NCBI GenBank assembly: GCA_046290225.1
Contig: JBKAGE010000080.1
Coordinates: forward strand, 64,001 to 128,000
Source: Bradymonadia bacterium
GTDB taxonomy: Bacteria > Myxococcota_A > Bradymonadia > UBA7976 > UBA1532
DNA length: 64,000 bases
Reading direction: 5' to 3'
The notes below the pieces were generated by a model that was given only the letters and a program-made list of their open reading frames with translations, ran no database searches and was not told the origin of the DNA. The position numbers and the translations under genes were made by a program. This document shows positions 30,325-50,585 of this stretch, one piece after another (positions within the stretch are counted from its first letter, which is position 1; each line of letters opens with the position of its first letter).

Positions 30325-30817
30325 GCTGGGGCTGTGTAGGCAGTCATCGCTTCGCTCTGCCTGCGTAGGCGCCCGGTCTTCGGCAGCCCTTCGGGCCGCC
30401 TCGTCGGTCGCGTACACGTCGGCACACTCGCTGGCGCGAGCAGGCCTCCGGGTAGGCAGGGTCGCTCAGGGCTGCGCCCTGTTTGCTCGCTCCCCTGCGT
30501 AAAAAGTCAGTTCTGGTGTGGCTTTGGGGGTACTTTCAACGCTATTGGGGCTTACGCCGAACGTTTGATGTTCAGAAGCTTGTACGTTCGCGGCAGGTCG
30601 AGTGCCGGCAGACATCAGCAACAAGATACAGAAGAAGCTCTTTACGCAGGGGAGCGAGCGAGTAAGGCGAAGCCTTGAGCGACCCTGCTTACCCGGAGGC
30701 CTGCTCGCTTCAGCGAGCGTGGCGACGTGTACGCAGCTCCAAGGCGGGCCGAAGGCCGGCCGTCGGCAGCTGCCTACGCAGGCAGAGCGAAGCGATGACT
30801 GCCTTCACAGCCCCAGC
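30325..30817. repeat. Large imperfect fold-back element (REPIN/BIME/MITE-like), copy C
   Basis: Arms 30325-30506 and 30638-30817 are reverse complements (e.g. GGCAGTCATCGCTTCGCTCTGCCTGCGTAGGC / GCCTACGCAGGCAGAGCGAAGCGATGACTGCC); 131-bp core; lies between convergent genes. Confidence 0.9.
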
Positions 30818-30876
30818 CACCTACGGCCGCCCCAGCCCTATTCGACTCTGAATCAAGGCTCTCAAAGGCCCTCACC

Positions 30877-31416
30877 TCAGGGCAACACCATCTCGCAGTT
30901 GTTGGGGAAGGCGCTGCGACCAGCGGTGGTCTCACACAGACAATCCTTGATGGCCAGGTTGGCGCAGCGGCCCGACATCCCACCGAAGTACGTCATGCAG
31001 ATGCCACGCTGAGGCGGACACTGGCGGTTATTGGGGCCACCACACTCCGTCATGTCGTCGCGGACGCAGGCGCCCTCGTCGCAGATGTAGCTCTCAGGGC
31101 AGGGCGTCGCTTCGTCACACGCCTCGCCGAGAGCCTCGCACATGAAGGGGGGGGCTGCGTCGGGCAGCGGCTCAGCGTCGGCGCGGGGCTCGGCATCAGG
31201 CATGGCCTCTGCGTCGGGCACCTCGGCGTCGAGATCCATCTCGCCGCCGGCACCAGCCTCGCCGCCTGCACCTGCTTCACCACCGCCGGCTCCGGCCTCG
31301 CCACCACCGGCACCCGCGACGGCTCCGCCCTCACCACCAGAATCACTGTCGTCGTCACAGCCGACCGTGAGGGCCAAAGCGAGTGACATCCACACCATTG
31401 CGCTCTTGATTTGCAT
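30877..31416 (-). CDS. Small Gly-rich/Cys-rich lipoprotein
   Basis: Lipobox TVGC, GGEAGA repeats, PDAEP repeats, Cys-rich C-terminus. Confidence 0.75.
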   Translation of the reverse strand: MQIKSAMVWMSLALALTVGCDDDSDSGGEGGAVAGAGGGEAGAGGGEAGAGGEAGAGGEMDLDAEVPDAEAMPDAEPRADAEPLPDAAPPFMCEALGEACDEATPCPESYICDEGACVRDDMTECGGPNNRQCPPQRGICMTYFGGMSGRCANLAIKDCLCETTAGRSAFPNNCEMVLP

Positions 31417-31648
31417 GATCGTTCTCCCGTGAGTCGACGCCGCCTCTTACCGGTCAGGGGGGATCATACGCAAGTAGATCGACGCGCCAAGCCCATGAAG
31501 AAGCCTCATGTGGGGGCCTCACCGGGGGCTTAAATTTCCTCCCATTTGCATCTTTCGTGTCGTGAGGGTGCACACACCCGGGCGTTCCGGTTACACTCCG
31601 GCGTCGTACGATACTGATCTTGAAACCCTGTTTGGAGTTGAGGCCGCC

Positions 31649-32887
31649 ATGCGTTCCAGCAAGAGGCTCACCGATTTTCTCACCCTTGTGTTCTCTATCT
31701 CCCTGGCCACGGCCGTCGTCGGCTGTGACTCCGAGGAGTCCGAAGGCGACAACGGCGGTGCCGGTGGCGCCGGCGCGGTCGGGGGTGAAGCCGGCGGTGG
31801 CGCTGGCGGTGCCGCAGGTGGCGAAGCTGGCGCTGGTGGCGGCGAAGCTGGCGCTGGTGGCGGCGAGGCCGGTGCCGGTGGTGGCGAGGCTGGTGCAGGC
31901 GGCGGCGAGGCCGGCGCTGGTGGTATGGCCATGGGCGGCGAGGGCGGCGGCGAGCCCCCTGCCCCTGTGTGCGAGGGCAACGAGTTCTTCGTGAACAGCG
32001 AGCTCGCCCGTTTCCAGGATCCGGGCTTCCGCTACATCGGCATCGATGACCGCTTCAACGGCCCCATCTCCTTCATCAGCGTCGAGGTGGGTGACACCGT
32101 CGAGGCCGGGTCCTACGACCTCGCCGGCACCAACTTCAACGACTGTGAGGTCTGTGTCTACGCCGCTCAGGGCTGTGGCGAGAACGGCTGCGAGAAGATC
32201 TTCTACGCCGACGAGGGCTCTGTGGAGATCACCGGCTTCGACGGGCCCGGCGGTCAGTGGCAGGCCAACTTCAACAACACCATCTTCACCGAGGTGGACC
32301 TCGGCCCCGGCAACGTCTCCACCCCCGTCGACGGCGGCGAGACTTTCTGCATGGCCGACCAGGCCTTCGACGTCACCCTGCCCTCCCTCGTCAACCATCC
32401 GGTGCCCAACTTCGAGCTTCAGAACTGCGCCACCGGTGAGTTCGAGAGCATGCACGACATCGTCGGCGACATCCCCGCCCTCTGGATCGTGCTCAGCGCC
32501 GGCTGGTGCAGCGCCTGTCACCAGTTCATCCCCAACGTGATGCTGCCCACGGCTCAGGCTCGCCCCGACGCCATCAAACCCATCATCATCGTTGGTGAAG
32601 ACGACAACTTCGGCCCCGTGGACCTTGACTTCTGCGAGCGCTACGCCTCTCGCTACGAGGCCTACGACGCCGATCTGAGCATGTTCTACATCGACCACGA
32701 CGGCACCAGCAGCTTCTCCACCATGTTCGCCAACATGTGGGCCTACTTCGGCCCCAACGGCGAGTTCGGTCTGCCCTGGAACGGCCTCATCCGCGGTGGT
32801 GACAACGTGTACTTCTACGGCGACGGCGCTTCTGGCCAGGGCCGTGAGGGCCTCACCGATGCCCTGAACACGCTCATCGGCGAGTGA
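31649..32887 (+). CDS. Lipoprotein with Gly-rich linker and C-terminal thioredoxin-like (redoxin) domain
   Basis: Lipobox VVGC; VPNFELQ...WIVLSAGWCSAC...GLPWN. Confidence 0.7.
   Translation: MRSSKRLTDFLTLVFSISLATAVVGCDSEESEGDNGGAGGAGAVGGEAGGGAGGAAGGEAGAGGGEAGAGGGEAGAGGGEAGAGGGEAGAGGMAMGGEGGGEPPAPVCEGNEFFVNSELARFQDPGFRYIGIDDRFNGPISFISVEVGDTVEAGSYDLAGTNFNDCEVCVYAAQGCGENGCEKIFYADEGSVEITGFDGPGGQWQANFNNTIFTEVDLGPGNVSTPVDGGETFCMADQAFDVTLPSLVNHPVPNFELQNCATGEFESMHDIVGDIPALWIVLSAGWCSACHQFIPNVMLPTAQARPDAIKPIIIVGEDDNFGPVDLDFCERYASRYEAYDADLSMFYIDHDGTSSFSTMFANMWAYFGPNGEFGLPWNGLIRGGDNVYFYGDGASGQGREGLTDALNTLIGE
31817..31918 (+). repeat. In-frame 21-bp tandem repeat (about 5 copies, GGGEAGA)
   Basis: GGTGGCGGCGAAGCTGGCGCT-like units in tandem. 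Confidence 0.8.
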
Positions 32888-33969
32888 TTTCGCCTTTCCC
32901 TCCTGCGCTCCGTGGCTGCATCTTGCTGGCCACGCTCGCCTGCCTGAGCGCCTGCGACAGCGACACATCTTCTTCAGATACTGTTGATGCAGCCCAGTTC
33001 GAAGGTGATGCCTCACCTCAACAGCTCGGCATGCCTGATGCGTCTGCTCAGACAGATGCAGGGCTCGCGTCGGACGCCGAGACCAGCGATGGTGGGGTAT
33101 CCCTCGCCGATGCCGGGCCTCCACCGACCGTAGATGAGTGCTTTGGCGACATCGTCGGCGCCCTCGGCCCTGACTATTCGCCGTATGATCCGGTCATGGG
33201 ACACCACTGCCTGGGCACGAACCATCAGACCATCGAGGGGGTGCAACGGGTGGTCTTCCTCGGTGACTCGGTCACCAAGGGCACCCCGCCGACCCGTCGA
33301 GAAGAGTACTACCGCAATGTGCTCGGTGAGCGACTCACCGCATTGTGGGGTGACGATCTCGTCATCGACGACTGCTCAGATCTCGGCGCCCGAACCGACG
33401 ACTTCCTGCTGGGTAAAAAGCAGATCGAACGGTGCTTCCCCGAGGGCGGCGACGAGCGCACCACCCTGGTGGTCTTCACAATGGGTGGGAACGACATCTT
33501 CGAATGGGCCCAGGCCGATCTCGACCTCGACGACGCCCTCGTCGAAGCCGACAAAGCCGCCGAGCTGCTCGACGATGCCATCACTTGGCTCACGACACCG
33601 CGACGGTTCCCCAACGGATCTTTCGTGATCTTCGCCAATCCGTACGAGTACACCGACGCCACGGGCGATCTCGCCTCGTGTGACATCGCTCGCCGGGTGG
33701 GCATCACCGAGAACTGGCTGCGGGGGGCCCCTTCGGTGGTCTACTTCCAGTCGCGATACATGGAGATCGCCACACGCCATCAGGTGGATCTGATTTTCAC
33801 CTTGGAGCACTTCTGCGGCCACGGGTTCCACAACGAGAACCCGGAGAGTCAGTGCTATCGGGGCCCGAACACCCCGCGGTGGTTCGACTTCACGTGCATC
33901 CACCCCACCCCTGAGGGGCACGGGGTCATCGCCGACATGTTCGAGGCCGTCGTCATCGATCGTCGCTGA
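32884..33969 (+). CDS. SGNH/GDSL hydrolase lipoprotein
   Basis: Lipobox LSAC; VFLGDSVT, TMGGND, CIHPTPEGH. Confidence 0.85.
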   Translation: MISPFPPALRGCILLATLACLSACDSDTSSSDTVDAAQFEGDASPQQLGMPDASAQTDAGLASDAETSDGGVSLADAGPPPTVDECFGDIVGALGPDYSPYDPVMGHHCLGTNHQTIEGVQRVVFLGDSVTKGTPPTRREEYYRNVLGERLTALWGDDLVIDDCSDLGARTDDFLLGKKQIERCFPEGGDERTTLVVFTMGGNDIFEWAQADLDLDDALVEADKAAELLDDAITWLTTPRRFPNGSFVIFANPYEYTDATGDLASCDIARRVGITENWLRGAPSVVYFQSRYMEIATRHQVDLIFTLEHFCGHGFHNENPESQCYRGPNTPRWFDFTCIHPTPEGHGVIADMFEAVVIDRR

Positions 33970-33987
33970 GCCACAAGGCTCGGCGAC

Positions 33988-35013
33988 TCATCGACAGGCG
34001 CCAGCCTCAGCGCAATCAGCATCAGCACAGTCAACCTGGCCGTCACCGTCGTTGTCGATGGTGTCGAGGCAGAACCCTGCCTCATCTTCACGACACAGGC
34101 TCACCAGGGCGTTTCGGCTACAGCCGAAGTCTTCGCAGTCGACGAAGCCGTTCTCGTCGTTGTCGATGCCGTCGCTGCACAGCTCGTCGGTGTTCTCCGC
34201 AGGGCCACACACGGTGACCCAGGGGTTGCGACCGCAGCCGAAGTCTTCACAGTCGGTGAAGCCATTCTCGTCATTGTCGAGCCCGTCTCCACACAGGATG
34301 TTCCGGTTCTCGGCCATGGGGCAGACCGTCACCGTGGGCGTGTACGTGCAGTGGAAGTCGTCGCAATCGGTGAAGCCGTCACCATCATCGTCGATCCCAT
34401 TGCTGCAACGGGCGTCGGTGGCCTCGTGCAATTGGGGATCATAAGGACCCTCTGGCGCAGGGCCACCGCCGGCGCCACCAAGCGCCCCGCCCATGCCACC
34501 GGCGCCGGCCACAGGCTCGCCGCCCATACCACCAGCACCGGCCACGGGCTCACCACCCGCCCCTCCGGCACCGGCCACAGGCTCGCCGCCTGCGCCACCT
34601 GTCATCCCGCCGGCACCGGCCACAGGCTCACCGCCCATGCCACCGGCACCGCCAGCACCAGCCACGGGCTCACCACCAGCACCACCCGTCATACCACCCG
34701 CGCCAGCGACGGGCTCACCGCCAGTGCCGCCCATGGACATGCCACCAGAGCCACCCACAGGGGTGCGGCCGTCACCGCAGTCAGTGCTGGGCAAACGATC
34801 TTCGGGGGACTGGCCAACAACGCAGAGCATGTCGACGCAGACCCCTTGAGCGGCGCCGTTGCGCGTCTCTGCAGAGCAGCAGGGACCCACGATTTCAGTG
34901 TCTCTCAGCTGACACTGCTCTGCACTGTCGTTGTCAGATTCACAGCCCAGGGTGAGCGCGGTCAGCGCCGCCCAGGCCAGCGTCGTCCATCGTCGGTTCA
35001 AAGTGATGCGCAT
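33988..35013 (-). CDS. Lipoprotein with GGEPVAGAGG repeats and four Ca-binding-like CxDGxDNDxNGxxDCxDxxC repeats
   Basis: Lipobox TLGC; AGGAGG RBS; repeat motifs read directly. Confidence 0.8.
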   Translation of the reverse strand: MRITLNRRWTTLAWAALTALTLGCESDNDSAEQCQLRDTEIVGPCCSAETRNGAAQGVCVDMLCVVGQSPEDRLPSTDCGDGRTPVGGSGGMSMGGTGGEPVAGAGGMTGGAGGEPVAGAGGAGGMGGEPVAGAGGMTGGAGGEPVAGAGGAGGEPVAGAGGMGGEPVAGAGGMGGALGGAGGGPAPEGPYDPQLHEATDARCSNGIDDDGDGFTDCDDFHCTYTPTVTVCPMAENRNILCGDGLDNDENGFTDCEDFGCGRNPWVTVCGPAENTDELCSDGIDNDENGFVDCEDFGCSRNALVSLCREDEAGFCLDTIDNDGDGQVDCADADCAEAGACR

Positions 35014-35234
35014 GGGTCCTCCTGCATAATCGCGCGCTTGGTAACATGTCGCGGCAGGGTGGTTCAATGTGATGTGCTGGATGAGGGCTCGATGGCGTGT
35101 GACGAGAAGAGGAGGAAACGGTGTCGGTCCACCACGGGCAGGACTGTAGAAGACAGCTGATGGACCGACACCGCCCAAGGTGGGCTGAGCAAGAGAGGTA
35201 TGCACCTCTTGGGGTAGGTTGCATGCCTTGGTTG

Positions 35235-35251
35235 AGCAACCCGTGTGCCAA
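35235..35251 (-). promoter_or_regulatory. Sigma-54 -24/-12 promoter
   Basis: Minus strand reads TTGGCACACGGGTTGCT, an exact TGGCAC-N5-TTGC match, divergent from a sigma-54 activator gene. Confidence 0.8.
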
Positions 35252-35310
35252 GCAGCGGACGCTGGCATTTTCCTGGCATCATGGCCACAATCCATTCATC
35301 GACGCGAATC

Positions 35311-35335
35311 CATGTGTAGCGTTGCGCTACACATG
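35311..35335. promoter_or_regulatory. Perfect 11-bp palindrome, probable upstream activator sequence
   Basis: CATGTGTAGCG-TTG-CGCTACACATG, centred about 100 bp upstream of the inferred sigma-54 start site. Confidence 0.6.
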
Positions 35336-35353
35336 ACGCGAAAGAGGTCAGTC

Positions 35354-37339
35354 ATGGACAACACCCCCCTGGTCCTCGAAGACGTCGCACTGACGCAGTG
35401 GTCACGTTTTGTCGAAAGCAATGGCCAACCTTCGACCCTCGTCCCCAGCACGCTCTCACGGTGTTGGCGTCGGGTGATCGAGCTGGGGGTGGATCCCAAC
35501 GGCGAGCGCCCGACAGATCACCTGTTGCGTGGTTCAGACCTGTCGGATCGGCGAGCAGCCCTAGAATCAGTCTGGTCGATCTCCAACCAGGTGTTTCAAG
35601 AGGCAGCCCAGGCTTTCTCCGACCGCGACTACATCACGTTGCTCACGGATCGCGATGGAGTGGTCCTGCAATCCCTCGGGGGCGGCAACTTCTCCGACAT
35701 GGCCCGGTCGTCCCTGCTCATCGAGGGGGCCTGCTGGGGTGAGCCACACCGAGGCACCAATGCCATCGGCACCGCCATCGCGGAGAAGCGTCCGGTGGTG
35801 GTCCACGGGCGTGCACACTTCGAGCGTTCGAACCATGAGCTGGTGTGCTATGCCAGCCCGATTCGCGATCCCTATGGAGAGGTCATCGCCGTCCTCGACG
35901 CGACATCCTTCTCTGTTGCAGCTGATCCCTTCGTACACCACGCGATCCGCACAGCGGCCCGCGCCGTGGAGGAGATGATCCGGCTGCAAGCATATGCGGG
36001 GGTGGGACCCGGCATGCTGCAAACGCTGAGCAGCACGCTCGACCGCATCGACGGGCCCGCCTTCCTCGTGGAACGCCCAGGTGTGATTCGACATGCCAAC
36101 GTGCATGCGCTGCAAAGCTATGCGCTGCGCCCTGGCTACACCTCACTCTCGAGTCTGGTGTCGATGAGCTGGGACGACCTGCTCCACGAGATCGTCAAGC
36201 CTTCTCGAGGCGGCCATGCAGTTGTTGACGCCCTGGGCCGGCAACATCTCTTGCGAGCAGAGCCCATCTTCGGCCCTCAAGAGCAAGTGCTGGCCACGCT
36301 GGTGATTCTGACGCCCTCTCGTGCAGGCCGCTCGACGCCTGTCCGAACGCCTGCCCCACGCAAAACGACGGATCCGTTCGATCCGATCTTTTGTGCTGAT
36401 CCACAGGTGGCACAGGCGGTGAGCACAGCCCGACGCGTGGCCCGGAGCAATCTGCCGGTGATGCTCCTCGCGGAGAGCGGTACAGGCAAGGAGCTGTTCG
36501 CCCAGGCGATCCACAAAGCGAGCCGCCGCGCTGATGGGCCCTTCGTGGCCCTGAACTGCGGCGCGCTGTCGCCGAATCTCTTGGAGAGCGAGCTGTTCGG
36601 CTACGGGCCGGGGGCCTTCACAGGGGCAGATCGCCGCGGCCGCGACGGTCAGCTCCAGGCAGCCCACGAGGGTACGTTGTTCCTCGACGAAGTGGCGGAG
36701 ATGCCTCAAACGATGCAGGCGATGTTGCTGCGGGTTCTGGAGACGGGCCGCTTCCACCGTGTGGGTGAGACCCAGGAACGCCAGGTGAGCGTGCGCCTGA
36801 TTTGTGCCACCTGCGCCGAGCTGCCTCGCATGGTGGCGGAGAAGCGTTTTCGCAGCGATCTCTACTATCGCCTCAAAGGCATCTCGCTGGCGCTGCCTAC
36901 GCTCCGAGCCCGCACGGATGTGGTGCCTCTCGCGGAGTACCTGCTGGAGCGTATCTGCCATGATGAGGGCTTCGAGCATGTACCCGAGCTCTCTCCGGAG
37001 TTCGGGCAATGGCTCACCCGCTTCGACTGGCCTGGCAATGTCAGAGAGCTGCGTACAACGCTGCACTGCGCGCTCATCATGTCGGGTGATGCGCCGGTCC
37101 TCACTCTGGAGCACCTGCCTCCGGGCACTGAGCTCTCCATCTTCACCGAGCCTGCACCGTCGACCACACCCACACCCGGTAACCATCTGGCTTCAGGTCG
37201 AAACCTCAACGGCCTGGAAGGTGAGGCGGTCCGCACGGCCCTGAGAGAGGCTGCAGGCAACGTAAGCCAGGCAGCCCGTACCCTCGGCGTGGCTCGAAGC
37301 ACGCTCTACCGCATGATGAAACGTCACGGCTTGGACTGA
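35354..37339 (+). CDS. GAF-containing sigma-54-dependent Fis-family activator (AcoR-like)
   Basis: GAF (GTNAIGTA, CYASPI), AESGTGKE, ESELFG, GAFTGA, LFLDEV, WPGNVREL, HTH GNVSQAARTLGVARSTLYR. Confidence 0.92.
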   Translation: MDNTPLVLEDVALTQWSRFVESNGQPSTLVPSTLSRCWRRVIELGVDPNGERPTDHLLRGSDLSDRRAALESVWSISNQVFQEAAQAFSDRDYITLLTDRDGVVLQSLGGGNFSDMARSSLLIEGACWGEPHRGTNAIGTAIAEKRPVVVHGRAHFERSNHELVCYASPIRDPYGEVIAVLDATSFSVAADPFVHHAIRTAARAVEEMIRLQAYAGVGPGMLQTLSSTLDRIDGPAFLVERPGVIRHANVHALQSYALRPGYTSLSSLVSMSWDDLLHEIVKPSRGGHAVVDALGRQHLLRAEPIFGPQEQVLATLVILTPSRAGRSTPVRTPAPRKTTDPFDPIFCADPQVAQAVSTARRVARSNLPVMLLAESGTGKELFAQAIHKASRRADGPFVALNCGALSPNLLESELFGYGPGAFTGADRRGRDGQLQAAHEGTLFLDEVAEMPQTMQAMLLRVLETGRFHRVGETQERQVSVRLICATCAELPRMVAEKRFRSDLYYRLKGISLALPTLRARTDVVPLAEYLLERICHDEGFEHVPELSPEFGQWLTRFDWPGNVRELRTTLHCALIMSGDAPVLTLEHLPPGTELSIFTEPAPSTTPTPGNHLASGRNLNGLEGEAVRTALREAAGNVSQAARTLGVARSTLYRMMKRHGLD

Positions 37340-37360
37340 GCGTTCCTCGTGCAGTGTACG

Positions 37361-38509
37361 TCACCATCCCCTGGCGGGGTGCCATTGCTCGACGACGGTG
37401 TCTCCCTCTACGACGTGATACCGCTCGAAGAGCGCCGCCGAGAGGCAACTGTGATTGGGGATGATGCGCACCCGCTCTCCGATGTGCCATCTCGGATCTT
37501 CGGCTTCGACTCTCAGACCGCCTTCGACTTTGATGACGCCGTGCTCCTGACTGAGCGAGACGATTTTGAGCCCGTCGATACGCTTCTGCTCAGCGTCGAC
37601 GACGATGCCGTAGCCACACTCTGGATCGACGTGGGTGGGCCCTGGGTCCTTGCTCAACGCCAGGGCCCCGGCATTGACGACGAGCGTGCCCCGCTCGGGG
37701 TAGCGCCCGATGATGGTGGCGACCACGCTGTAGGCGATCTCGTCGAGTGCGCAGCTGCCAATGGCGTGTTGAAACGCATCGAACAACGCATAGTTGCCTG
37801 GCCGCACTTCGGTGACCCCCTCCAAGCCTGCGGCGTGCGTGAGTGTGGGGGTCGATCCCAGGCTGACGCCGTGGATCTCGATGCCGAGGGCCCGAAGCCG
37901 CTGAGCGCACCGAACGATGGCATCCCGCTCTTGCTCCGCGACCTGTACGATCTCTTCTGAGGTGGTGCAGGCATATGATTGGCCTCCGTGGGTCAGCAAC
38001 CCCCGCAGCTCGATCCAAGGTGATGCTTGAGCGCGCTCTGCAAGCCGCTGGATCTCCTGGCCCTCAGGGCTCAATCCACCGCGAGCGTCGCCGCAGTCTA
38101 TCTCCAGCCACACGCCCAGGGCACACTGCCGCAGCGCCCCTTCTCGGGCGATGGCTTCAAGTATCGTGGGATGGTCACACAACACATCGAGCCGCTCTAT
38201 CTCGGGCCATGCATTGAGTTCAAATATGTGACTGATCTGTTCGAGAGCGGGCGGTACAGCCCACAAGATGTCTCTGACCCCTGCCCTGGCGAACGCTCTG
38301 GCCTCGGCGAGGGTGCTGACGGTGACGCTGTGGTGATCGCCGGCGAGCTGATGTGCGAGCCCCTCAGGCGATTTGTGGGTCTTTGCGTGGGGCCGCAACG
38401 CCACCCCGAGCCTGGCCGCCCGTGCGCTCATGTTCTGACAATTTCGAATGAACCGCTGTCGGTCGATGACGGCGCATGGTGTGGTGACGTCTTTCAATTG
38501 AGTGGGCAT
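37361..38509 (-). CDS. D-threonine aldolase / D-serine dehydratase (DSD1)-like fold-type III PLP enzyme
   Basis: RPHAKTHK, EIDCGDARGG, HGGQSY, GSTPT, EVRPGNY, SQEHG, PNHSC. Confidence 0.88.
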   Translation of the reverse strand: MPTQLKDVTTPCAVIDRQRFIRNCQNMSARAARLGVALRPHAKTHKSPEGLAHQLAGDHHSVTVSTLAEARAFARAGVRDILWAVPPALEQISHIFELNAWPEIERLDVLCDHPTILEAIAREGALRQCALGVWLEIDCGDARGGLSPEGQEIQRLAERAQASPWIELRGLLTHGGQSYACTTSEEIVQVAEQERDAIVRCAQRLRALGIEIHGVSLGSTPTLTHAAGLEGVTEVRPGNYALFDAFQHAIGSCALDEIAYSVVATIIGRYPERGTLVVNAGALALSKDPGPTHVDPECGYGIVVDAEQKRIDGLKIVSLSQEHGVIKVEGGLRVEAEDPRWHIGERVRIIPNHSCLSAALFERYHVVEGDTVVEQWHPARGW

Positions 38510-38529
38510 GTGATCTTACTCTCGGGTGC

Positions 38530-38958: not shown

Positions 38959-39082
38959 GCTGGACATAGATGATGCCTTTGGGTACCCTGCGCGCCCTCA
39001 CACCCGTGGCCAAAGCTGTCACCGGCTGAATTCAAGCGCCTGAGCAGCAGGTGGTCACAACACAACTGGAGAGCATTCATAG

Positions 39083-39541
39083 ATGATGCAAAGCCTTACT
39101 GAGCACCCCTGGGCCGCAGACGAGTTCCACGGTCAGCAGGAGGTTGGGCTGGAAAGCGTTGGTCTGGAGTCGGTTGCCACCCCAGGCTCGCACGCTGAGA
39201 ACGCCCCGGCCCCTTACTACGCAGAGCTGGTCGAGATGCGGGGGGGTCGCCGTATGATCTTCCGCGCCTTCTTCCACGATTTCAAACAGCTGGGCTTGCA
39301 CCCCCGCTCCCAGGCCCGCCTCGAGGGTCTGGTGAAGCGCGGTGGTCACCTCTTCATCGATCCCGACGGCGAGCAGCCGATCTGTGGTCTGATCAAGGGA
39401 CGCCTCGCTGATTACCCCCGCCTCAACGCCGACGATGAGCAGCACTGCTGCATCGTCCTCGACGCGGATTACACCCCGGCGCCCCGCGACAACATCGACG
39501 CCTTCGCCCGCCAGAAGAAGATCCGCGCGTTTTTGGTCTAG
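39083..39541 (+). CDS. Hypothetical protein
   Basis: GGAG RBS, GC3-biased codons; no recognised motif. Confidence 0.65.
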   Translation: MMQSLTEHPWAADEFHGQQEVGLESVGLESVATPGSHAENAPAPYYAELVEMRGGRRMIFRAFFHDFKQLGLHPRSQARLEGLVKRGGHLFIDPDGEQPICGLIKGRLADYPRLNADDEQHCCIVLDADYTPAPRDNIDAFARQKKIRAFLV

Positions 39542-39692
39542 CTCCGGCGCTCCGGCGGCGCCAGCCGTCGTGAGCGCGGCGATTTCACGCACAGCTGCGG
39601 CGGGCAAATGCTCGACGCAGCGCTGGCAGAAGCCTTCGCTGCGCCTGCGCTTTTCCCACCACATCTGCACGCGAACTCACCACGCTCACGAC

Positions 39693-39843
39693 GACTGTCG
39701 CCACCTCCGCGCCTCCGCGGGGCTCGTGCATAGGTGGGTTATGGCTTTGTGGGGCTCTTTGGGACTTCTGACTGCCGCCTCCGGGCCTCCGCGAGACATG
39801 TGCATAGGTGGGTTGTGGCTTTGTTGGGGTTTTGTGGGGCCGG
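39693..39843. repeat. Imperfect ~75-bp tandem duplication in an intergenic region
   Basis: GCCTCCGCG...GTGCATAGGTGGGTT[A/G]TGGCTTTGT(T)GGGG at 39726-39754 and 39800-39829. Confidence 0.75.
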
Positions 39844-41442: not shown

Positions 41443-41477
41443 GCGTCAGAACAGCGTTCTCAGGAGGTGAAAGCGCC

Positions 41478-41909: not shown

Positions 41910-41940
41910 GACCCTCAACCTCCAGTCAGAGAGACGGCGA

Positions 41941-41970
41941 AAGTTACTGTCGTGCGGGCGCCGCTGTCAA
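41941..41970 (-). promoter_or_regulatory. Sigma-70-type promoter for dksA
   Basis: Minus strand TTGACA-N18-TAACTT. Confidence 0.6.
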
Positions 41971-42024
41971 TGCTCAGAGCGCATGATCGAACATGGACCC
42001 AAGTGTCGATGCCCGCAAGGCTTT

Positions 42025-43734: not shown

Positions 43735-43862
43735 ATAGACCTCGCCACCAAAAACCCCAACACACGTGGGGTTCGATTGTCATCGCGCTCGATGAGCAGA
43801 CGTGCGGTTATACTCCCCGCACGTCTGTTCATCTACGCAAATCCCGAGGCCGCATAATCACG

Positions 43863-44822
43863 ATGTACGCCGCCACACTCGAAGACATCCGCGCCGCACG
43901 AGCGCGCATCGCAGGCCACGCCCACGTGACCCCGGTCATGACCTGCGCCGCTCTCGACGCCCTCGCCCATCGCTCGCTCTTCTTCAAATGCGAGCATCTG
44001 CAAAAGGTGGGGGCCTTCAAGTTCCGGGGCGCGGTGAACGCGCTGTCCAAGCTCAAAGAAGCGCCAGGGCCGACCCCTGAGGCCGTGGTGACGCACTCCA
44101 GCGGGAACCACGCCCAGGCCGTGGCCCTCGCGGGGCGCACGCTGGGCTTCGAAGCCCACATCGTGATGCCCACGTCGGCGCCCACTGTGAAACGTCAGGC
44201 CGTAGAGGGTTACGGGGCGCGGGTGTACCCCTGCGCCCCGGTGCTTGAGGCACGTGAGAGCACGGCGGCCCAGGTGGTGGCTGAGACTGGAGGGGTGCTG
44301 ATCCCCCCGTACAATCATCCCGACGTCATCGCTGGTCAGGGCACCATCGCCCTGGAGCTGCTTGAGCAGGTTGCCGATCTCGACGCGGTGATCGTGCCCG
44401 TGGGCGGTGGCGGCATGATCTCGGGCATCGCCCTGGCCCTTCGAGAGGCGGCCCCCCACGTTCGGGTGTTCGCTGCGGAGCCTCTCGGCGCCGATGACGC
44501 AGCCCGCTCGAAGGCGGCGGGGCGTCTGATCCCCCAGACCGGCCCCGACACCATCGCCGACGGGCTGCTCACCAGCCTCGGCGATCTCACCTGGCCGGTG
44601 ATCCGCGACGTGGTCGAGCAGGTGATCACGGTGAGCGAGGCGGCCATCGTAGAGGCGATGTCCCTTGTATGGAGCCGTATGAAGCAGGTGGTGGAGCCCA
44701 GCGCCGCAGTGTCCCTCGCTGCGGCCCTCTCAGATGAATTTCGGGCCATTTCGGGGGTCAAGCGGGTGGCCCTGGTGCTGTGCGGAGGCAATGTCGACCT
44801 GAGCGCGTTGCCATGGGGATAG
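43863..44822 (+). CDS. Serine racemase / threonine dehydratase-type PLP enzyme
   Basis: FKCEHLQKVGAFKFRGA, SSGNHAQA, GQGT, VGGGG, EPSAA, CGGNVD. Confidence 0.9.
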   Translation: MYAATLEDIRAARARIAGHAHVTPVMTCAALDALAHRSLFFKCEHLQKVGAFKFRGAVNALSKLKEAPGPTPEAVVTHSSGNHAQAVALAGRTLGFEAHIVMPTSAPTVKRQAVEGYGARVYPCAPVLEARESTAAQVVAETGGVLIPPYNHPDVIAGQGTIALELLEQVADLDAVIVPVGGGGMISGIALALREAAPHVRVFAAEPLGADDAARSKAAGRLIPQTGPDTIADGLLTSLGDLTWPVIRDVVEQVITVSEAAIVEAMSLVWSRMKQVVEPSAAVSLAAALSDEFRAISGVKRVALVLCGGNVDLSALPWG

Positions 44823-45192
44823 CGGACGGTCATCGCCTTACGGCGACAGCCTGTAGCGGACGCCTGCTTCGCAGAGCTGTAGCGGACGCTCATTTGCCTT
44901 CGGCAAATTCCCTGTAGCTTTTTGAAGATCAGTTGAGGGGACGTGTGTGGGTTCATCTACCGCAAACGCTGGTGGCCCCTGACGCACCAGTTCCGGCGTA
45001 AGCCCCGACCTGGGTTGAGAAACCCACCAGCAACACCATAACTCTCTGAAAAAGCTACAGCTCCGGCTGCCGGAGGCAGACTCGGCGTCCGCTACAGCTC
45101 TGAGCCAGCGCAGCTGGTTCAGGCGTCCGCTACAGGCGCAGCGCAGCTGGGCCGTCCGCTACAGGCGGTGCCAAAGGCACGGCCGTCCGCTC
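44820..45192. repeat. Modular REP-like fold-back element, copy A
   Basis: CTGTAGCGGACG at 44851 and 44877 (partials at 44820, 44912); inverted CGTCCGCTACAG at 45086, 45124, 45153 (partials at 45053, 45184); hairpin spacers; 133-bp core. Confidence 0.92.
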
Positions 45193-45310
45193 GATTAATT
45201 CCAGCATTTCGGTCGAAAAACCGTGAACCCATCGGGCCATTTGGTTCATCGTTGCTCAGTGGTACAGGCAAAGGCCCGTACCAGCTCAGACCCCACATCG
45301 GAGTGAATCC

Positions 45311-45760
45311 ATGTCTCGTTTCCTCGCTGGCCTGTGCGCCGCTGCCGCCCTCACCCTCGTCGGGACCGTCGCCACCGCCTGCCCCGGTGGTGAGATGAAG
45401 GCCCAGGCCACCCCCGCCACCATGACCACCGCTCAGCTCGAAGAGGCCATGAGCGCCAAGAAGGTCACCGTGGTCGATACCAACAACGCCGAGAAGTTCG
45501 CCAAGGCCCACATCCCCGGCGCCACCCACGTGCCCTATGATCAGGTCTCCGCGAGCACCCTGCCCGCCGACAAGAACGCCAGCCTGGTGTTCTACTGCGC
45601 CAACACCATGTGTGGCGCCAGCAAGAAGGCCGCCACCGCCGCCATGGGCGAGGGCTACAACAACGTCGCCGTCTACCCCGAGGGCATCGATGGCTGGGTC
45701 GCCGCCGGCAAGCCCGTCGAGGCCGCCAAGGCTGCCAAGGCCGCCAAGGGCGGTTCCTGA
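45311..45760 (+). CDS. Exported rhodanese-like domain protein
   Basis: Signal peptide; HIPGA, VFYCANTMCGAS, YPEGIDGW. Confidence 0.85.
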   Translation: MSRFLAGLCAAAALTLVGTVATACPGGEMKAQATPATMTTAQLEEAMSAKKVTVVDTNNAEKFAKAHIPGATHVPYDQVSASTLPADKNASLVFYCANTMCGASKKAATAAMGEGYNNVAVYPEGIDGWVAAGKPVEAAKAAKAAKGGS

Positions 45761-45913
45761 GCCCACCCCTGCCTTCAGGCTCTTCTCCCCCAGCTCTCTC
45801 CCTCACTGCACCTCAGCGCCTCGTCACCACGAGGCCTGCCTCTCGCAAGACCTGACAACTGACTGTCGAGGCACTAACGTACCCCCCTCACTGGTCAACG
45901 TATGGGGAGTACG

Positions 45914-47065
45914 ATGCTCAAAGAATGGCTGGGTAAGCTCAAAGGTCTGCTGGGCAAGAGAAGCTCGGGCGGCGCCAAGGGCAGTGGCCGGCAGTGGATA
46001 CTGCCAGGCATTGCCACCTTCATCATCCTGCTCTCGCTCTTCAGCGGCGGCAGCGGCGCCGTAGAAGTAGAGCCCGGCGAGGTGGCCGTGATCTACAACC
46101 AGACTGGCATCAGCGCCTTTGGCGATCTCGCCAGCGTGAGCCAGGAGCAGGGCGTGTTGACCTTCTTCCCCGGGTTTCAGCGGGTCGAGAAGCTCGACGT
46201 GCAACCTCAGATCTTCGTCATGGAAGGCAACGGAGACTCTGCTGAGGCCAGGCCCAACCAGTCGGGCAAGCTTACCGTGCGCGCCAAAGACGGCTCGAAC
46301 TTCTACTTCGAGCGGGTGGAGATCCACTACCAGCTGATCACCGAAAAAGCCGCCGAGGTCATCGTCCTCAACGGCCCCGGTGACGACTACAAGGGCAAGG
46401 CCATCAAGACCCACGCCCGGGAGATCCTGCGCGACGAGTTCGGCCGCTACGAGTTCCTCGAGATCGCCAACCCCGCCACCTATGGCGAGGCCACCAGCCG
46501 GGCCAAGCGGGCCCTGAACGAGCGCCTCAACCCCCTGGGCATCGAGGTCACCAACATCCCGCCGCCGAAGCCCCGGTTCGACACCAACATCGAGCAGGCC
46601 ATCGAGAAGCGTCAGAACGCCGAGCAGGAGGTCGAGGTCCAGCGAGAAGAGCGCAACAAGCTCAAGCAGGAGCGCGAGCGCAAGCTGCAGCAGGTGGCTC
46701 AGCGCAAGAGCGCCGAGTTCCAGGGCATCAAGGCCCGCCTCGAGGCAGAGCTCAAGCAGGCCCAGAACACCGAGCTCGCCAGCAAGCGCGAGGCCGACAA
46801 GTACTTCATCGAGCGCGACGCCGAGGGCAAGGCCATGCGCGACGAGAAGGTCACCCAGGCCAAAGCCAACGAGGTGGCCTACCGCCGCGAAGCCGAAGGC
46901 CTCGCCGCCAAGATCCGCGCCGTCGGTGAAGAGGGCCCCGACGTACTCAACCGCGTCATCGCCGAGAAGGTGTTCCCCCAGATGCGCAACCTCACCGCCC
47001 GCCCCTACACCCGGCAGTCCACCCCCATCGACATCCGGCACATCGACTCTTCGGGAGAGCAGTAA
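45914..47065 (+). CDS. SPFH/Band 7 domain membrane protein with long coiled coil
   Basis: TM, VEPGEVAV, VRAKDG, LNPLGIEV, C-terminal AE-rich coiled coil. Confidence 0.8.
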   Translation: MLKEWLGKLKGLLGKRSSGGAKGSGRQWILPGIATFIILLSLFSGGSGAVEVEPGEVAVIYNQTGISAFGDLASVSQEQGVLTFFPGFQRVEKLDVQPQIFVMEGNGDSAEARPNQSGKLTVRAKDGSNFYFERVEIHYQLITEKAAEVIVLNGPGDDYKGKAIKTHAREILRDEFGRYEFLEIANPATYGEATSRAKRALNERLNPLGIEVTNIPPPKPRFDTNIEQAIEKRQNAEQEVEVQREERNKLKQERERKLQQVAQRKSAEFQGIKARLEAELKQAQNTELASKREADKYFIERDAEGKAMRDEKVTQAKANEVAYRREAEGLAAKIRAVGEEGPDVLNRVIAEKVFPQMRNLTARPYTRQSTPIDIRHIDSSGEQ

Positions 47066-48099
47066 TGGCGATGAAGATTCTCAACTGGATCAGCGGCATC
47101 ATCATCATTCTGTGGCTGGCCCCCAGCGCCTGCCTGGAGCGCATCGAGCCCGGTAAGATCGGCGTGCGCCGCAGCCTCTCTGGTGGTGTGAGCGAGGCCG
47201 ACTTCAGGGTGGGCTACCACCTGTCGCTCCCCTTCTGGCACAGCTGGTATCAGCTCGACGGCACCCTGCACTACCTCGAGTTCAACCAGGCCTCCCCGGC
47301 GGGCTCTCTCGAGCTGCGCACCAAAGAGAACAACATCATCTTCATCGATCTCACCATCCCCTTCCGCATCAAGAAGGACGAGGGCTGGCAGATCGTGAAA
47401 GAGGGCTTCTCCACCAGCTACAAGAGCAAGATGAAGTCCCAGGCCGTCGGCGTGTTGCGCAAAGAGCTCGCCGAGCTGTCCAGCCTCGACGTGCAGGTTC
47501 CCGAGAAGCGTCAGACCGTCGCCGAGAAGGCTCTGCCGCTGCTCAATGAGGCATTGTCCCAGTATCACATCGAGGCCACCCACGTGATCATCCGGGGCAT
47601 CCGGTTCCGACAGCAGTACGAGCAGAAGCTGCAGAACAAGCAGCTCTACATCGTGCAGGGTCGCCTCGACGAGGCCCTGGGCAAGGAGTCGAAGGCCCGG
47701 CAGGAGACCGAGACCCTCAAGAAGGTCATCGACAAGGATCTCGCCCTCAAAGCCGAGGAGTGGAACCGCAAGATCGAGGAAGAGAAGTCGACCTACGAGC
47801 TGCAGATCGCCCAGATTCAGGCCCAGACCAAGAAGTACGTCCGGGCCAAGAGGGCTCAGGCCGACGCCATGTTCTCCGAGCTCGAGGCTGAGGGTAACCT
47901 CGCCGAGGCCAAGGCCGCCGCCCTGGGCGAGAAGCTCAAAGCCGAGGCCCTGGCCAGCAAGGCCGGCCGCACCTTCAGCGCCATCGAAGCCGCCAAGCGG
48001 TTCCAGCTCGGCGACATCCAGCTCAACTCCAGCGATCCGCGGTTCTTGTACGAGTTCGGCAGTATGGCCGCGTGGCGACGGTTCTTCCTGGGAGAGTGA
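47065..48099 (+). CDS. Second SPFH/Band 7 domain protein
   Basis: IEPGKIGVR, GYHLSLPFWH, LRTKENN, coiled coil; TAATG coupling to the upstream gene. Confidence 0.8.
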   Translation: MAMKILNWISGIIIILWLAPSACLERIEPGKIGVRRSLSGGVSEADFRVGYHLSLPFWHSWYQLDGTLHYLEFNQASPAGSLELRTKENNIIFIDLTIPFRIKKDEGWQIVKEGFSTSYKSKMKSQAVGVLRKELAELSSLDVQVPEKRQTVAEKALPLLNEALSQYHIEATHVIIRGIRFRQQYEQKLQNKQLYIVQGRLDEALGKESKARQETETLKKVIDKDLALKAEEWNRKIEEEKSTYELQIAQIQAQTKKYVRAKRAQADAMFSELEAEGNLAEAKAAALGEKLKAEALASKAGRTFSAIEAAKRFQLGDIQLNSSDPRFLYEFGSMAAWRRFFLGE

Positions 48100-48102
48100 T
48101 CA

Positions 48103-48696
48103 GTGCTGCCTCGTTTGATCTTCTTCGCCGTGCTCATCGGCGGCGCCCTGTGGACCTACCGGCGATGGCAAATCATTCAGGCCCTCAAGCTGCCCGAGGT
48201 ACCCGAGGACTGGCGCGAGCTCGCGAGCCGTGACGCCCGGGTCGCCGAGGCCATCGACATGCGCGATCAGCTCGCCACTCAAGTCAGTCGTAAAGACAAC
48301 CGGCTCGATCGAGATGTGCTGCGGGAGCTCGACGAGCTCGTCGGCGGAGTGGTGGAGCTCACCCGTCTGCGTCACCAGATGGAGCATCACCTCGATCGTC
48401 TCGACCCCAAGGCCCTCGAGCGTGACGCCCACTTGCTCGGCGAAGCAGCCCTCGAAGATCATCAAGCGCGCATCGACGATCTGCAGACCCGACCCAAGGC
48501 CCTGGAAGCGGCCGCAGCGGAGACCGTACACGCCTTGCGGCAGTTCCACCTCGAGACCCTCGAGGCGCTGAGCCACATGGCCCTCGACCCGCAGACGGTG
48601 AGCCGGCGGCTCCGTGTCCACACCGAGGCGCTCCAGCACCGTCTGAAGGCCGAGCGGGAGATTCAGGCGCTGCTTGGGCCAGAGCATCGCTCTTGA
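48103..48696 (+). CDS. Membrane-anchored helical hypothetical protein
   Basis: N-terminal TM, all-alpha remainder; starts 3 bp after the SPFH stop. Confidence 0.65.
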   Translation: MLPRLIFFAVLIGGALWTYRRWQIIQALKLPEVPEDWRELASRDARVAEAIDMRDQLATQVSRKDNRLDRDVLRELDELVGGVVELTRLRHQMEHHLDRLDPKALERDAHLLGEAALEDHQARIDDLQTRPKALEAAAAETVHALRQFHLETLEALSHMALDPQTVSRRLRVHTEALQHRLKAEREIQALLGPEHRS

Positions 48697-48904
48697 TCTG
48701 CGGCTTCGGGTTGAGTATCTCTCAGACACGATCTGTGTGACACCATCACACAAAAACCTACTCATAATGGGTGGAGGTGGTTCACATGCTCAGCGCATAT
48801 CATACTTCCCTGCATGATGGCCGATATGAGGGGGGTGAGCAGGACGCTTCACCACACTCAGATCTGCGCATCTGGGTAACTCGCTACCCCCATGGTTTCC
48901 TGAC

Positions 48905-50167
48905 ATGACGACTCAAACCCTGCGCGAGGCGCCCATGAAGAAGTTGTACGACAGCACGGCTGGCCGCCTCTTTTCTCTCTCTCGGCGAAAGGGCGCCCCT
49001 CAGGCGTTGCTGGTGACTGCCTGGTTCCCCCCAGCCGTGGGTGGCAGTTGCGTGTTGTACGAGAACATCTACGGGTGGATGGCGCAGGAACGCGACGTGC
49101 CCGTGCAGGTCCTCACCGACGAGGTCCTGTCTCCGGGCGCCGACGGGCCCTTCGCCGGCATGCAGGTGCAGCGACGACCCATCCAGACGTTGGAGTGGGG
49201 GGTCACCGACTTCAAGGGCAGCATGCACCACCTCTCGGTGGTGAAGCGCATGCGACAGCTCTCTCGCGGACAGAAGACTGTGATCCACACGGGACGCGGG
49301 CTCCCCGAAGGCCTGTGGGCCTGGGCCAACCGCTACCTCGGCGGCGGCGCCCCCTATGTGTGCTGGGCCCATGGTGAGGAGATGTCTTTCTGCGCCGACT
49401 CCCGTGAGCTGGCCATGCTGATGCGCCCTGCGTATGGCGGCGCCGCCTTCTGCATCGCCAACAGCAAGAACAGCGGCAGTCTGCTCGAAGGCATCGGCGT
49501 GCCCTCGAAGCGCATCAAGGTGGTCTACCCCGGGGTGAACCTCGACTACTTCAACCCTGAAGATCACGACGGCTCAGCCATCAGGGCCCGCTACGCCCCG
49601 AACCCCGACGACATCTTGATGCTCACTGTGGGCCGTCTGCAGCGGCGCAAGGGCCACGACATGGCCATCAAGGCAGTGGCCCGTCTCAAGGACTCACACC
49701 CCAACCTCAAATACGTGATCCTGAGCGATGGTGAGGAGCGAGAGAACCTGCAGCAGCTCATCGACACGCACGATCTCGGCGATCGGGTGTTCCTCGTGGG
49801 CCAGATCGAGTGGGCCGACATGCCCAAGTACTACGCAGCCTGCGATCTGTTTGTGATGCCCAACCGCGACGATGGCTCTGATCTCGAAGGCTTCGGCATC
49901 GTCTTCATCGAGGCCCAGTCCATGGGGGTGCCGGTCATCGGCGGCCGCAGCGGTGGTGTGCCAGAGGCTGTGGGTGAAGGCGAAGTGGGCTTCCTCGCTG
50001 ATGGCACTGACGCTGAAGACATCGCCCACCACATCGCTCGTCTGGCGGACGACGAGGCCCTCCGACGTCGCTTCGGTGACGCGGGCAAGATCCGAGCGCG
50101 CCGCTTCACGTGGCAATCGGCAGCACAGCAGGTGTTGGACATTCACGAGGCAGCAGCAGAGACCTGA
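48905..50167 (+). CDS. Glycosyltransferase family 4 (GT-B)
   Basis: FPPAVGG, HGEE, VGRLQRRKG, EGFGIVFIEA, GGVPEAV. Confidence 0.92.
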   Translation: MTTQTLREAPMKKLYDSTAGRLFSLSRRKGAPQALLVTAWFPPAVGGSCVLYENIYGWMAQERDVPVQVLTDEVLSPGADGPFAGMQVQRRPIQTLEWGVTDFKGSMHHLSVVKRMRQLSRGQKTVIHTGRGLPEGLWAWANRYLGGGAPYVCWAHGEEMSFCADSRELAMLMRPAYGGAAFCIANSKNSGSLLEGIGVPSKRIKVVYPGVNLDYFNPEDHDGSAIRARYAPNPDDILMLTVGRLQRRKGHDMAIKAVARLKDSHPNLKYVILSDGEERENLQQLIDTHDLGDRVFLVGQIEWADMPKYYAACDLFVMPNRDDGSDLEGFGIVFIEAQSMGVPVIGGRSGGVPEAVGEGEVGFLADGTDAEDIAHHIARLADDEALRRRFGDAGKIRARRFTWQSAAQQVLDIHEAAAET

Positions 50168-50172
50168 TGGTG

Positions 50173-50585
50173 GAGCGGACGGCCGTGCTTGCGCACCGCC
50201 TGTAGTGGACGGCCGTGCTGCGCACCGCCTGTAGCGGACGCCTGAACCAGCTGCGCCTTGCAGAGCTGTAGCGGACGCCGAGTCTGCCTTCGGCAGCCTG
50301 AGCTGTAGCTTTCTAAGAGACTTTTGGTGTGGCTGGTGGGTTTCTCAACCCAGGTAGGGGCTTACGCCGGAAGTGGTCTGTCAGGGGCCAACAGCGTCTG
50401 CGGAAGATGAATCTACACACGCCCCCCTCAACTGATCTTCAAACAGCTACAGGGAATTTGCCGGAGGCAAATGAGCGCCCGCTACAGCTCTGAGCCAGCG
50501 TAGCTGGTTCAGGCGTCCGCTACAGGCTGTCGCCGTAAGGCGATGACCGTCCGCTACAGGCGGCCCAAAGGGCGGCCGTCCGCTC
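50173..50585. repeat. Modular REP-like fold-back element, copy B (inverted relative to copy A)
   Basis: Perfect 13-bp terminal inverted repeats GAGCGGACGGCCG / CGGCCGTCCGCTC; internal CTGTAGCGGACG modules; 134-bp core is the reverse complement of the copy A core with scattered substitutions. Confidence 0.92.

Follow-up and report, generated by a model that had tools for sequence, protein, structure and literature searches.

What are the three intergenic fold-back elements in the 64,000-nucleotide stretch of Bradymonadia bacterium DNA analysed here (the window), and how could such repeats have spread? An earlier note on this DNA had described inverted arms around a non-palindromic core in each, and the coordinates, arms and motif positions that it gave for copies C (30325-30817), A (44820-45192) and B (50173-50585) are correct, while its core lengths of 131 (C), 133 (A) and 134 bp (B) were reproduced with the boundaries drawn there (Table 1). 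The note had described the arms as different. This holds for C, whose arms cannot be aligned to those of A and B (only an 11-nt hairpin is common; local score 22 against a shuffled mean of 18.2, p = 0.10), but A and B are ~90% alike and form one family, so that the window holds two arm types, not three. A position just after a stop codon applies tightly to copy A, whose start overlaps the TAG that ends the serine/threonine dehydratase-family gene upstream (43863-44822), and to copy B, whose left arm follows the TGA of a GT4 glycosyltransferase gene (48905-50167) by 5 nt, but more loosely to copy C, which begins 36 nt past its stop. The right end of copy B overlaps the stop codon (TGA, 50584-50586) of a minus-strand ORF of 44 aa. 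As the note had stated, the window holds no cognate enzyme.

Table 1 Parts of the three fold-back elements, in positions of the window.
Feature	Position	Strand	Remarks
Copy C left arm	30325-30506	+	String of GTAG/GTAC-headed hairpins; 154/182 aligned columns match right arm
Copy C core, 131 bp	30507-30637	+	Identical to core of copy at G000:C72:92834-93325
Copy C core box 1	30514-30520	+	TGGTGTG
Copy C core box 2	30547-30559	+	The 13-mer; GCGTAAGC DNA mini-hairpin on minus strand
Copy C core box 3	30586-30596	+	GTTCGCGGCAG; family consensus GTTCGCGGTAG
Copy C right arm	30638-30817	-	
Copy A (B family) arm	44820-44919	+	Three hairpin modules
Copy A core, 133 bp	44920-45052	-	Reversed relative to B and C
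Copy A boxes	45032-45038 (box 1), 44994-45006 (box 2), 44957-44967 (box 3)	-	
Copy A arm	45053-45192	-	Four hairpin modules
Copy B left arm	50173-50310	+	Four modules joined at CT-GTAGCGGAC
Copy B core, 134 bp	50311-50444	+	Box 1 50325-50331, box 2 50357-50369, box 3 50396-50406
Copy B right arm	50445-50585	-	

Two gene-less families in a single genome

The genome from which the window was taken (G000; 8.58 Mb in 83 contigs, 99.4% complete, with some contigs breaking inside elements) contains two dispersed, gene-less fold-back families, with 36 full copies of the C type and 27 of the B type, the latter including copies A and B. All 63 lie between called protein genes and none within one. The non-autonomous, multi-copy nature that had been proposed for them is supported. 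Any one reading frame is open in at most 17/36 C and 3/25 B cores, and an Rfam search with the elements gave no match. Near-identical cores, comprising one identical pair and one pair at 99%, suggest recent copying or gene conversion without a Y1-type enzyme.

Among the genomes searched, both families were found only in G000. They were absent from 60 related genomes, a plasmid search gave no match, and the C-arm motif had 0 matches in viral sequences, while a B-unit tandem pattern matched 17 genome and 4 viral sequences, none with the architecture of a B element. The core pattern occurred 46 times in G000 and once among 400 genomes of the phylum, where the reversed-pattern control also gave one match. 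A metagenome scan returned 52 exact matches to the core pattern, which were read as chance because they had no flanking inverted arms (at most four seed pairs) and no core homology outside the pattern.

Copies are concentrated at gene ends: 24/27 B copies have a stop codon no more than 15 nt away, and 17/27 B and 16/36 C copies occupy convergent gene ends, compared with 512 of 4192 spacers. Among the copies covered (27 B, 22/36 C), no target duplication was detected (mean length of flanking direct repeats 1.4 versus 1.5 in shuffled pairs for B, and 1.3 versus 1.2 for C). We infer that the elements were inserted into these sites.

A core common to two arm families

The B and C cores (~135 bp) are homologous at 52% identity, and a profile built from C cores alone detects 25/25 B cores, as one from B cores alone detects 36/36 C cores (E < 0.01); the two families share one ancestral middle piece. 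The series of spaced core motifs in the earlier note was supported in part: the cores keep three G+C-rich boxes, common to B and C, at near-fixed spacing (31-33 and 38-39 nt), the third of which, GTTCGCGGTAG, is the longest run common to both. The boxes are more conserved than the sequence between them (C: 0.968 versus 0.807, p = 2e-7; B: 0.891 versus 0.852, p = 0.049), though conservation within families agrees only weakly, site by site, with identity across them (Spearman 0.22, Fisher p = 0.37). The further shared motif of that note, GGG..TCAAC, is not kept across C cores. Recombination was evident among C cores from linkage decay (permutation p = 0.001) and was not significant among B cores (p = 0.095). 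Core orientation had no bias by replication strand (24 versus 23, on a crude skew proxy).

The 13-mer of box 2, once described as invariant, occurs in just 8/36 C and 18/25 B cores, and the commonest C form of the site is GGGGCTTTCGCCG. It is nevertheless strongly enriched (27 occurrences in the 8.58-Mb genome, compared with expectations of 0.18, 0.55 and 2.1 under Markov models of order 3, 5 and 7) and tied to the elements, as 27/27 occurrences lie inside element loci. The strand opposite the 13-mer carries GCGNNAGC in 57/61 cores, always on the same strand, and this word is a known ultra-stable DNA mini-hairpin (accessible part of PMC13037366). The site had been proposed to bind a protein or to be nicked; it has no nicking-site signature, and its letters suggest a mini-hairpin of the single strand rather than a fixed duplex recognition site.

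Arms of shuffled, strand-polar hairpins

The arms are REP-like, as had been recognised, in that they consist of GTAG-headed hairpins. B arms contain 200 such units, 199 of them directly preceded by CT, with 5 nt between GTAG and the stem, whereas each C arm has three GTAG units and one GTAC unit. Hairpin modules are constantly swapped within a family: 27/27 B copies have distinct module strings, and the two ends of a B copy are built of different modules (0/27 symmetric). The ends of C copies are ragged, and their outer arms are more alike within than between copies (0.577 versus 0.457, p = 0.005).

In contrast, cores stay with their arm family. Arm families had been thought exchangeable, but the core tree needs only one change of arm type (support 100/99), and its split by arm family indicates that arms are rarely exchanged between families; one hybrid and one intermediate core were the B/C mixing detected.

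The hairpins are also polar. The 7-mers GCGNAGC and CCGNAGG, which are described as ultra-stable when made of DNA but far less so as RNA (PMC13037366, in part), occur in 3' versus 5' arms 152 to 0 times in B and 289 to 1 times in C. Read from the outside in, triloops are TNC rather than GNA in 117 versus 3 of 271 B cases and 85 versus 0 of 129 C cases, against a genome background of 79:101. On either strand, loops read GNA in the 3' arm only, and the GTAG-bearing arm holds the weak TNC loops instead of the stable ones.

Candidate routes of spread

We tentatively favour the reading that these are dispersed gene-less repeats that spread in the manner of REPINs and BIMEs, as folded single-stranded DNA, through an enzyme supplied in trans and not found in the assembly. 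TnpA-REP recombines BIMEs and cleaves single-stranded DNA between C and T, next to imperfect hairpins headed by GTAG (PMC3333891 and PMC8266576, both in part). In this reading the working form would be single-stranded DNA and not RNA, and a TnpA-REP-like cut and strand transfer at the CT-GTAG junctions would account both for movement of the element and for the shuffling of its modules. The core would be carried along as a functional passenger, with its hairpin and boxes acting on the single strand, where they may signal priming or protein loading for synthesis of the second strand. The mobiliser would most likely be an HUH (Y1) enzyme, since lost or left out of the assembly. The reading draws on the copy number and genome specificity, the core homology and conserved boxes, the polar hairpins, the shuffled modules, the placement at gene ends and the lack of target duplications. 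Weighing against it are the failure to find such an enzyme, the near-identical cores that exist in spite of this, the 5-nt gap between GTAG and the B hairpins, the weak loops of the GTAG-bearing arm, the absence of a replication-strand bias, the weak site-by-site agreement of conservation within and across families, and a four-helix-bundle gene as the only gene enclosed by C arms.

The resemblance to known systems is close but incomplete. As portrayed in the accessible portions of PMC3333891, PMC8266576 and PMC3733652, GTAG REPs, BIME-1 and REPIN-RAYT systems are likewise intergenic, genome-specific and multi-copy, with mosaic copies; in REPs, imperfect hairpins are preceded by GTAG, which adjoins CT, and BIME-1 places inverted units around a conserved non-palindromic linker, its L linker. 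Here, however, each arm strings 3-5 different hairpins over 100-180 bp in place of a single REP per side, a ~135-bp core is common to two unrelated arm families, GTAG in B lies farther from the stem than in the REP models given in that part of PMC8266576, and no RAYT was found in G000. The TIRtrons/TIRYT and long-TIR REPtrons of Pseudomonas (PMC3733652, in part) share long inverted arms of degenerate GTAG units and unrelated stem-loops, with many gene-less dimers, but their arms flank a tyrosine transposase, whereas those of G000 surround a non-coding core and in one case a PF05635 gene. For the mini-hairpins, the nearest parallel is with the phage G4 single-strand origin and ssiA, which carry GCGNNAGC and CCGAAGG mini-hairpins; the A form of box 2 matches the CGGCGAAAGCCG hairpin of the phage origin at 11/12 nt, a likeness of one short hairpin (PMC13037366, as far as accessible).

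Copies flanking a RAYT or other Y1 HUH gene would have pointed to a mobiliser, but PF01797 and NF047646 had no match anywhere in this 99.4% complete genome, and a custom profile of 26 divergent Y1 proteins from family relatives detected nothing in it (best E 0.32). The Y1 genes of those relatives do not lie within long inverted repeats (1/28 has a 29-bp repeat). No RAYT/HUH gene or other transposase was present inside B or C arms (span up to 3.5 kb), and no autonomous IS with B or C ends was found in G000. The profiles PF04480, PF13366 and PF01548 had no match in the genome, in which no IS110 enzyme was found; nor did that for the IS91 enzyme (PF04986) match, although its controls were equally silent, making this search uninformative. 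PF01541 matched once, in a 625-aa frame, and PF00589 had 8 matches, none enclosed by arms, the nearest B or C copy being 2.2 kb away.

A possible though unlikely alternative to spread by an enzyme of the TnpA-REP kind is that the elements are gene-less partners of a little-described mobile cassette, a gene for the PF05635/TIGR02436 four-helix-bundle protein within inverted repeats, that the core replaces this gene, and that the protein, with host enzymes, spreads both forms. Arms that are 93-96% like other C arms enclose a PF05635 gene (G000:C77:107013-107851), the only gene that C arms enclose, and the one other PF05635 gene of G000 (on C72, intact) lies inside arms of a third family, D, whose core has no similarity to the B/C core. 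Inverted repeats also surround PF05635 genes at 7/12 family loci of relatives, with one more weak case, and at 14/19 further loci of the class, compared with 0/60 small control genes of G000. In two relatives, G019 and G026, the cassette arm repeat is dispersed as well, and the two copies inspected were gene-less. A four-helix-bundle gene enclosed in a stem, as at C77 and C72, is also the layout of ORF-bearing 23S rRNA intervening sequences with S23p/PF05635 (accessible part of PMC4990558); here it lies outside rRNA and within much longer, modular arms, and almost every copy is gene-less. However, the C77 gene is frameshifted, no PF05635 gene was found inside B arms, and neither the cassette interior nor PF05635 resembles the core in DNA or protein sequence (best E 0.52). 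The cassettes of relatives are built on short tandem words (6-7-mers) that are absent from B and C arms, so that the C77 gene may be a captured passenger, and PF05635 proteins have no known catalytic activity according to the same part of PMC4990558. A literature search, with most subscription papers outside its scope, found no description of inverted repeat-flanked PF05635 cassettes or of such an element design.

The boldest form of this idea, which we consider decidedly doubtful, is that these are the non-autonomous members of an undescribed class of bacterial mobile DNA without an HUH or DDE transposase of its own, whose fold-back arms, drawn from a kit of ultra-stable DNA mini-hairpins, would carry either a PF05635 gene or a ~135-bp single-strand replication or priming core, with the PF05635 protein recruiting host enzymes that would copy them to gene ends.

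It is improbable that the elements are instead 3'-end RNA structures (terminators, stabilisers or RNase III substrates) kept by the host, and both spread and homogenised by gene conversion without any transposase. Their marked preference for stop codons and convergent gene ends would fit such a role, as would the very stable rods into which whole elements are predicted to fold as RNA (-210 to -374 kcal/mol), and both the recombination of C cores and the within-copy likeness of C outer arms are consistent with gene conversion. However, no conserved consensus RNA fold was found in the cores (structure conservation index 0.04-0.40); Rfam gave no match; copy C has no terminator- or promoter-like site; the hairpin stems are in triloop register, fitting DNA GNA loops; and gene conversion by itself generates no new sites.

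For the myxobacterium Nannocystis, repeats have been proposed to derive from retron msDNA that was reverse-transcribed and reinserted (work listed among the references of PMC6868368). An origin of this kind is very improbable here: a short collapsed C hairpin does lie between the two retron-type reverse transcriptase genes of G000, but these genes are convergent, and 57/1011 convergent pairs carry a B or C piece anyway. The putative retron ncRNA is single-copy and no more like A, B, C, D or E elements than shuffled sequences are (p 0.07-0.73), by which a retron origin already appears largely refuted. Bacterial MITEs (ERIC, Correia) are likewise gene-less, with inverted ends and tens of copies, and G000 has transposase genes that we take to be IS4-like, but classical MITEs moved by a DDE transposase are just as hard to credit, given the lack of a target duplication in the copies covered, of a fixed short TIR and of any transposase inside B or C arms, the modular arms, the asymmetric B ends (0/27 symmetric) and the ragged C ends.

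Implications

The spread of REP-like repeats in genomes without RAYT, and the function of PF05635 proteins, are the two questions on which these elements bear. If the reading of a lost RAYT is true, they would be an elaborate but familiar variant of REPINs. G000 offers ~60 full copies built from two arm kits on one ancestral core, together with natural hybrids and deletions and a form that carries a gene, a set that makes recognition of strand or structure, priming by the core hairpin and action of the PF05635 protein on the arms directly testable.

Two element families with one core

The three fold-back elements lie where the earlier note placed them, and BLAST with these copies located 107 loci in the host genome (8.58 Mb, 83 contigs, 64.4% G+C, 99.4% complete), comprising 63 full copies (36 C-type of ~490 bp and 27 B-type of ~400 bp), 9 partial copies that have a core, 19 pieces of arm alone and 16 short fragments. 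They had been described as a single family with different arms; copies A and B instead form one family in opposite orientation, while the arms of copy C indeed bear no significant likeness to theirs. Neither the B-type nor the C-type family was found in 60 relatives, in metagenome, genome and viral pattern scans or in plasmids, and 400 genomes of the phylum gave one isolated match, the same as the control.

The shared core claimed for these elements was borne out among the 61 of 63 cores analysed (the extraction pattern lost two), as the profile of either family recovered all cores of the other (25/25 and 36/36). Mean core identity was 84% for C-C, 80% for B-B and 52% for B-C, with closest pairs at 100% and 99% and a nearest-neighbour median of 91.5%. 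Positions shared by B and C are clustered (permutation p=0.011), forming the three runs TGGTGTG, GTTGGGGCTT and GTTCGCGGTAG, which are spaced by 31-33 and 38-39 nt and are more conserved than the intervening DNA (C, p=2e-7; B, p=0.049); testing column by column gave a weaker result (Spearman 0.22, Fisher p=0.37). The core 13-mer is enriched (27 occurrences versus 0.2-2.1 expected, 27/27 inside element loci) and is not invariant as first thought, being present in 8/36 C and 18/25 B cores. Within it lies a hairpin, GGC-TTWC-GCC, whose variable base is a loop position and whose three pairs are all intact in 52/61 cores; the other strand reads GCGNNAGC (57/61 cores). According to PMC13037366, GCGNNAGC and GCGNAGC have extraordinary stability as DNA, far less as RNA, and occur at single-strand origins. 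Recombination was detected among the cores of C copies (p=0.001) and fell below significance among B cores (p=0.095). The cores showed no conserved open frame and no conserved RNA fold, and Rfam, where an already described family might have appeared, gave no match; the last two results argue against RNA structures kept by the host, a reading that fits worse and is improbable.

Modular arms and their exchange

In B arms, hairpin modules follow one another with CT-GTAGCGGAC junctions (CT at 199/200), and by approximate module splitting the module strings differ in 27/27 B copies and are left-right symmetrical in none. In C arms too there are hairpins, headed by GTAG or GTAC and with alternative modules; these arms are more alike within than between copies (p=0.005-0.007), an excess not found for B arms. 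The hairpin loops are strand-polar: from outside in, TNC versus GNA numbered 117 to 3 in B and 85 to 0 in C (79:101 in the genome). Stable GNA mini-hairpins thus lie in whichever arm is 3' on the strand read (3' versus 5' arm, 152 versus 0 in B and 289 versus 1 in C). All these counts stem from a limited set of module types and do not represent hundreds of separate events.

The proposal that arm families are exchangeable is for the most part not borne out. In one hybrid (n=1), a B-type arm is combined with a C arm and a left core that is C-like (84%), and one copy with B-type arms (n=1) has an intermediate core, so arm replacement has occurred, though rarely; mostly arms were not exchanged, the core tree setting B apart from C with one change (support 100/99). 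Three collapsed elements, in which the arms are joined directly, show that the core is deletable. Four loci at gene ends combine half of a B or C element with E/F-type repeats, either as hybrids between families or because both collided at a site that they favour.

Among the other repeats, the E type has dozens of related loci across the genome, and one locus, with a gene resembling by eye an SMR-family transporter, is possibly a cargo-carrying form. Family D (47 copies) has GGGCAC-hexamer inverted arms and a core of ~163 bp with no relation to that of B and C.

Coordinates of elements, neighbouring repeats and genes (C-numbers, contigs of the host genome)
Feature	Location	Remarks
Copy C	window 30325-30817	C-type
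Copy A	window 44820-45192	B-type
Copy B	window 50173-50585	B-type
Hydrophobic ORF	window 50584-50718 (-)	44 aa; its TGA overlaps right end of copy B
Large protein	window 23147-27967	Cys/Asp-rich repeats, period 168 bp
Neighbouring large protein	window 28036-30288	same repeats; no match in NCBIfam
E-type hairpin repeat	window 39541-39727	adjoins stop codon at 39541; 82% to C46:54981-55149
E-type inverted arms	C36:153145-154952	~165-200 bp, 96%, around three small genes
Family D copy	C2:1885-2238	
Family D copy	C50:55559-57127	transposase gene inserted
162-176-bp element	C34:360961-361136	20-bp inverted ends
162-176-bp element	C78:372744-372905	with preceding row, sole full copies; each within a core (one of C, one of B), clear of the boxes
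Retron locus (L144)	C79:172510-189783	RT genes convergent, each with large partner genes
Putative ncRNA	C79:177728-178056	
PF05635 gene, frameshifted	C77:107013-107851	within C arms
PF05635 gene, intact	C72:82618-82929	within family D arms
Hybrid	C82:48338-48770	
Intermediate core	C35:507812-508205	
Collapsed element	C49:26723-27050	
Collapsed element	C35:489958-490159	
Collapsed element	C77:18779-18979	
B/C-E/F joint	C43:16529-16860	
B/C-E/F joint	C47:50610-51110	
B/C-E/F joint	C46:37746-38150	
B/C-E/F joint	C81:47840-48298	

Genomic placement

With genes called by a simple codon-model caller (6105 genes, 88% coding), 17/27 B (p=7e-10) and 16/36 C copies (p=2e-6) lie between convergent genes, against a background of 512/4192 spacers >20 bp; over all gene pairs, 1011 (~17%) are convergent. 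The position just after a stop codon seen in the window is general for B (24/27 copies at <=15 nt) and not for C (1/36), and TGA-GCGGAC occurs at 24/54 B ends. Core orientation showed no replication-strand bias. Target duplication was looked for at B and C copies and none was found; DDE MITEs fit worse and are very improbable.

Candidate enzymes and mechanism

The earlier note looked to a RAYT/Y1 HUH gene flanked by copies; the host genome gave no RAYT/Y1 match, even with a profile of 26 divergent Y1 proteins from family relatives (Y1 genes are present in 9/27 of these), and none for IS110, DUF559 or GxxExxY. It encodes two retron-type RTs, between which lies a collapsed C element, a single-hairpin remnant. 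The putative retron ncRNA is unrelated to the elements, and a retron origin, which fits worse, is hardly credible.

The main rival is that the elements are gene-less partners of PF05635 (TIGR02436) cassettes, in which a four-helix-bundle gene sits inside inverted repeats. A genome-wide inverted-repeat scan (<=3.5 kb) showed a single gene enclosed by B/C arms, the frameshifted PF05635 gene in C arms, and the other PF05635 gene of the genome is enclosed by arms of family D. In relatives, inverted repeats flank PF05635 genes at 7/12 family loci and 14/19 further class loci (excluding four loci of a related genome, G008, and the host's own, already seen) versus 0/60 small control genes, taken from the host and not from the relatives' genomes; in two relatives the cassette arm repeat is also dispersed. 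The core showed no similarity to the PF05635 gene, and we regard this partnership as rather unlikely. The labels Myxococcota (host group), retron type XIII, PF05635 as kin to Avd, IS4 family and PF11617 are our assumptions.

Our preferred, still tentative, reading is that the elements are REPIN/BIME-like and work as folded single-stranded DNA, because their GTAG-headed imperfect hairpins and CT junctions match those that TnpA-REP recognises and cuts (PMC3333891, PMC8266576). Cutting and re-joining as by TnpA-REP would shuffle modules and insert elements without duplication, and the core would travel along as a linker, with its mini-hairpin acting on the single strand; the single-stranded form, cutting sites, role of the core and enzyme are what we infer. 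The elements are taken to work as BIME-1/REPIN do and resemble the long-TIR REPtrons of PMC3733652, but are not classed as REP-RAYT members, since no cognate RAYT was found in the host genome. Within an incomplete coverage of the literature (main texts), no description of such an element design was found, and the part of PMC4990558 seen treats the rRNA form alone. What is new is the large modular arms, the sharing of one core by two arm kits that are not related to each other, and the link with PF05635.
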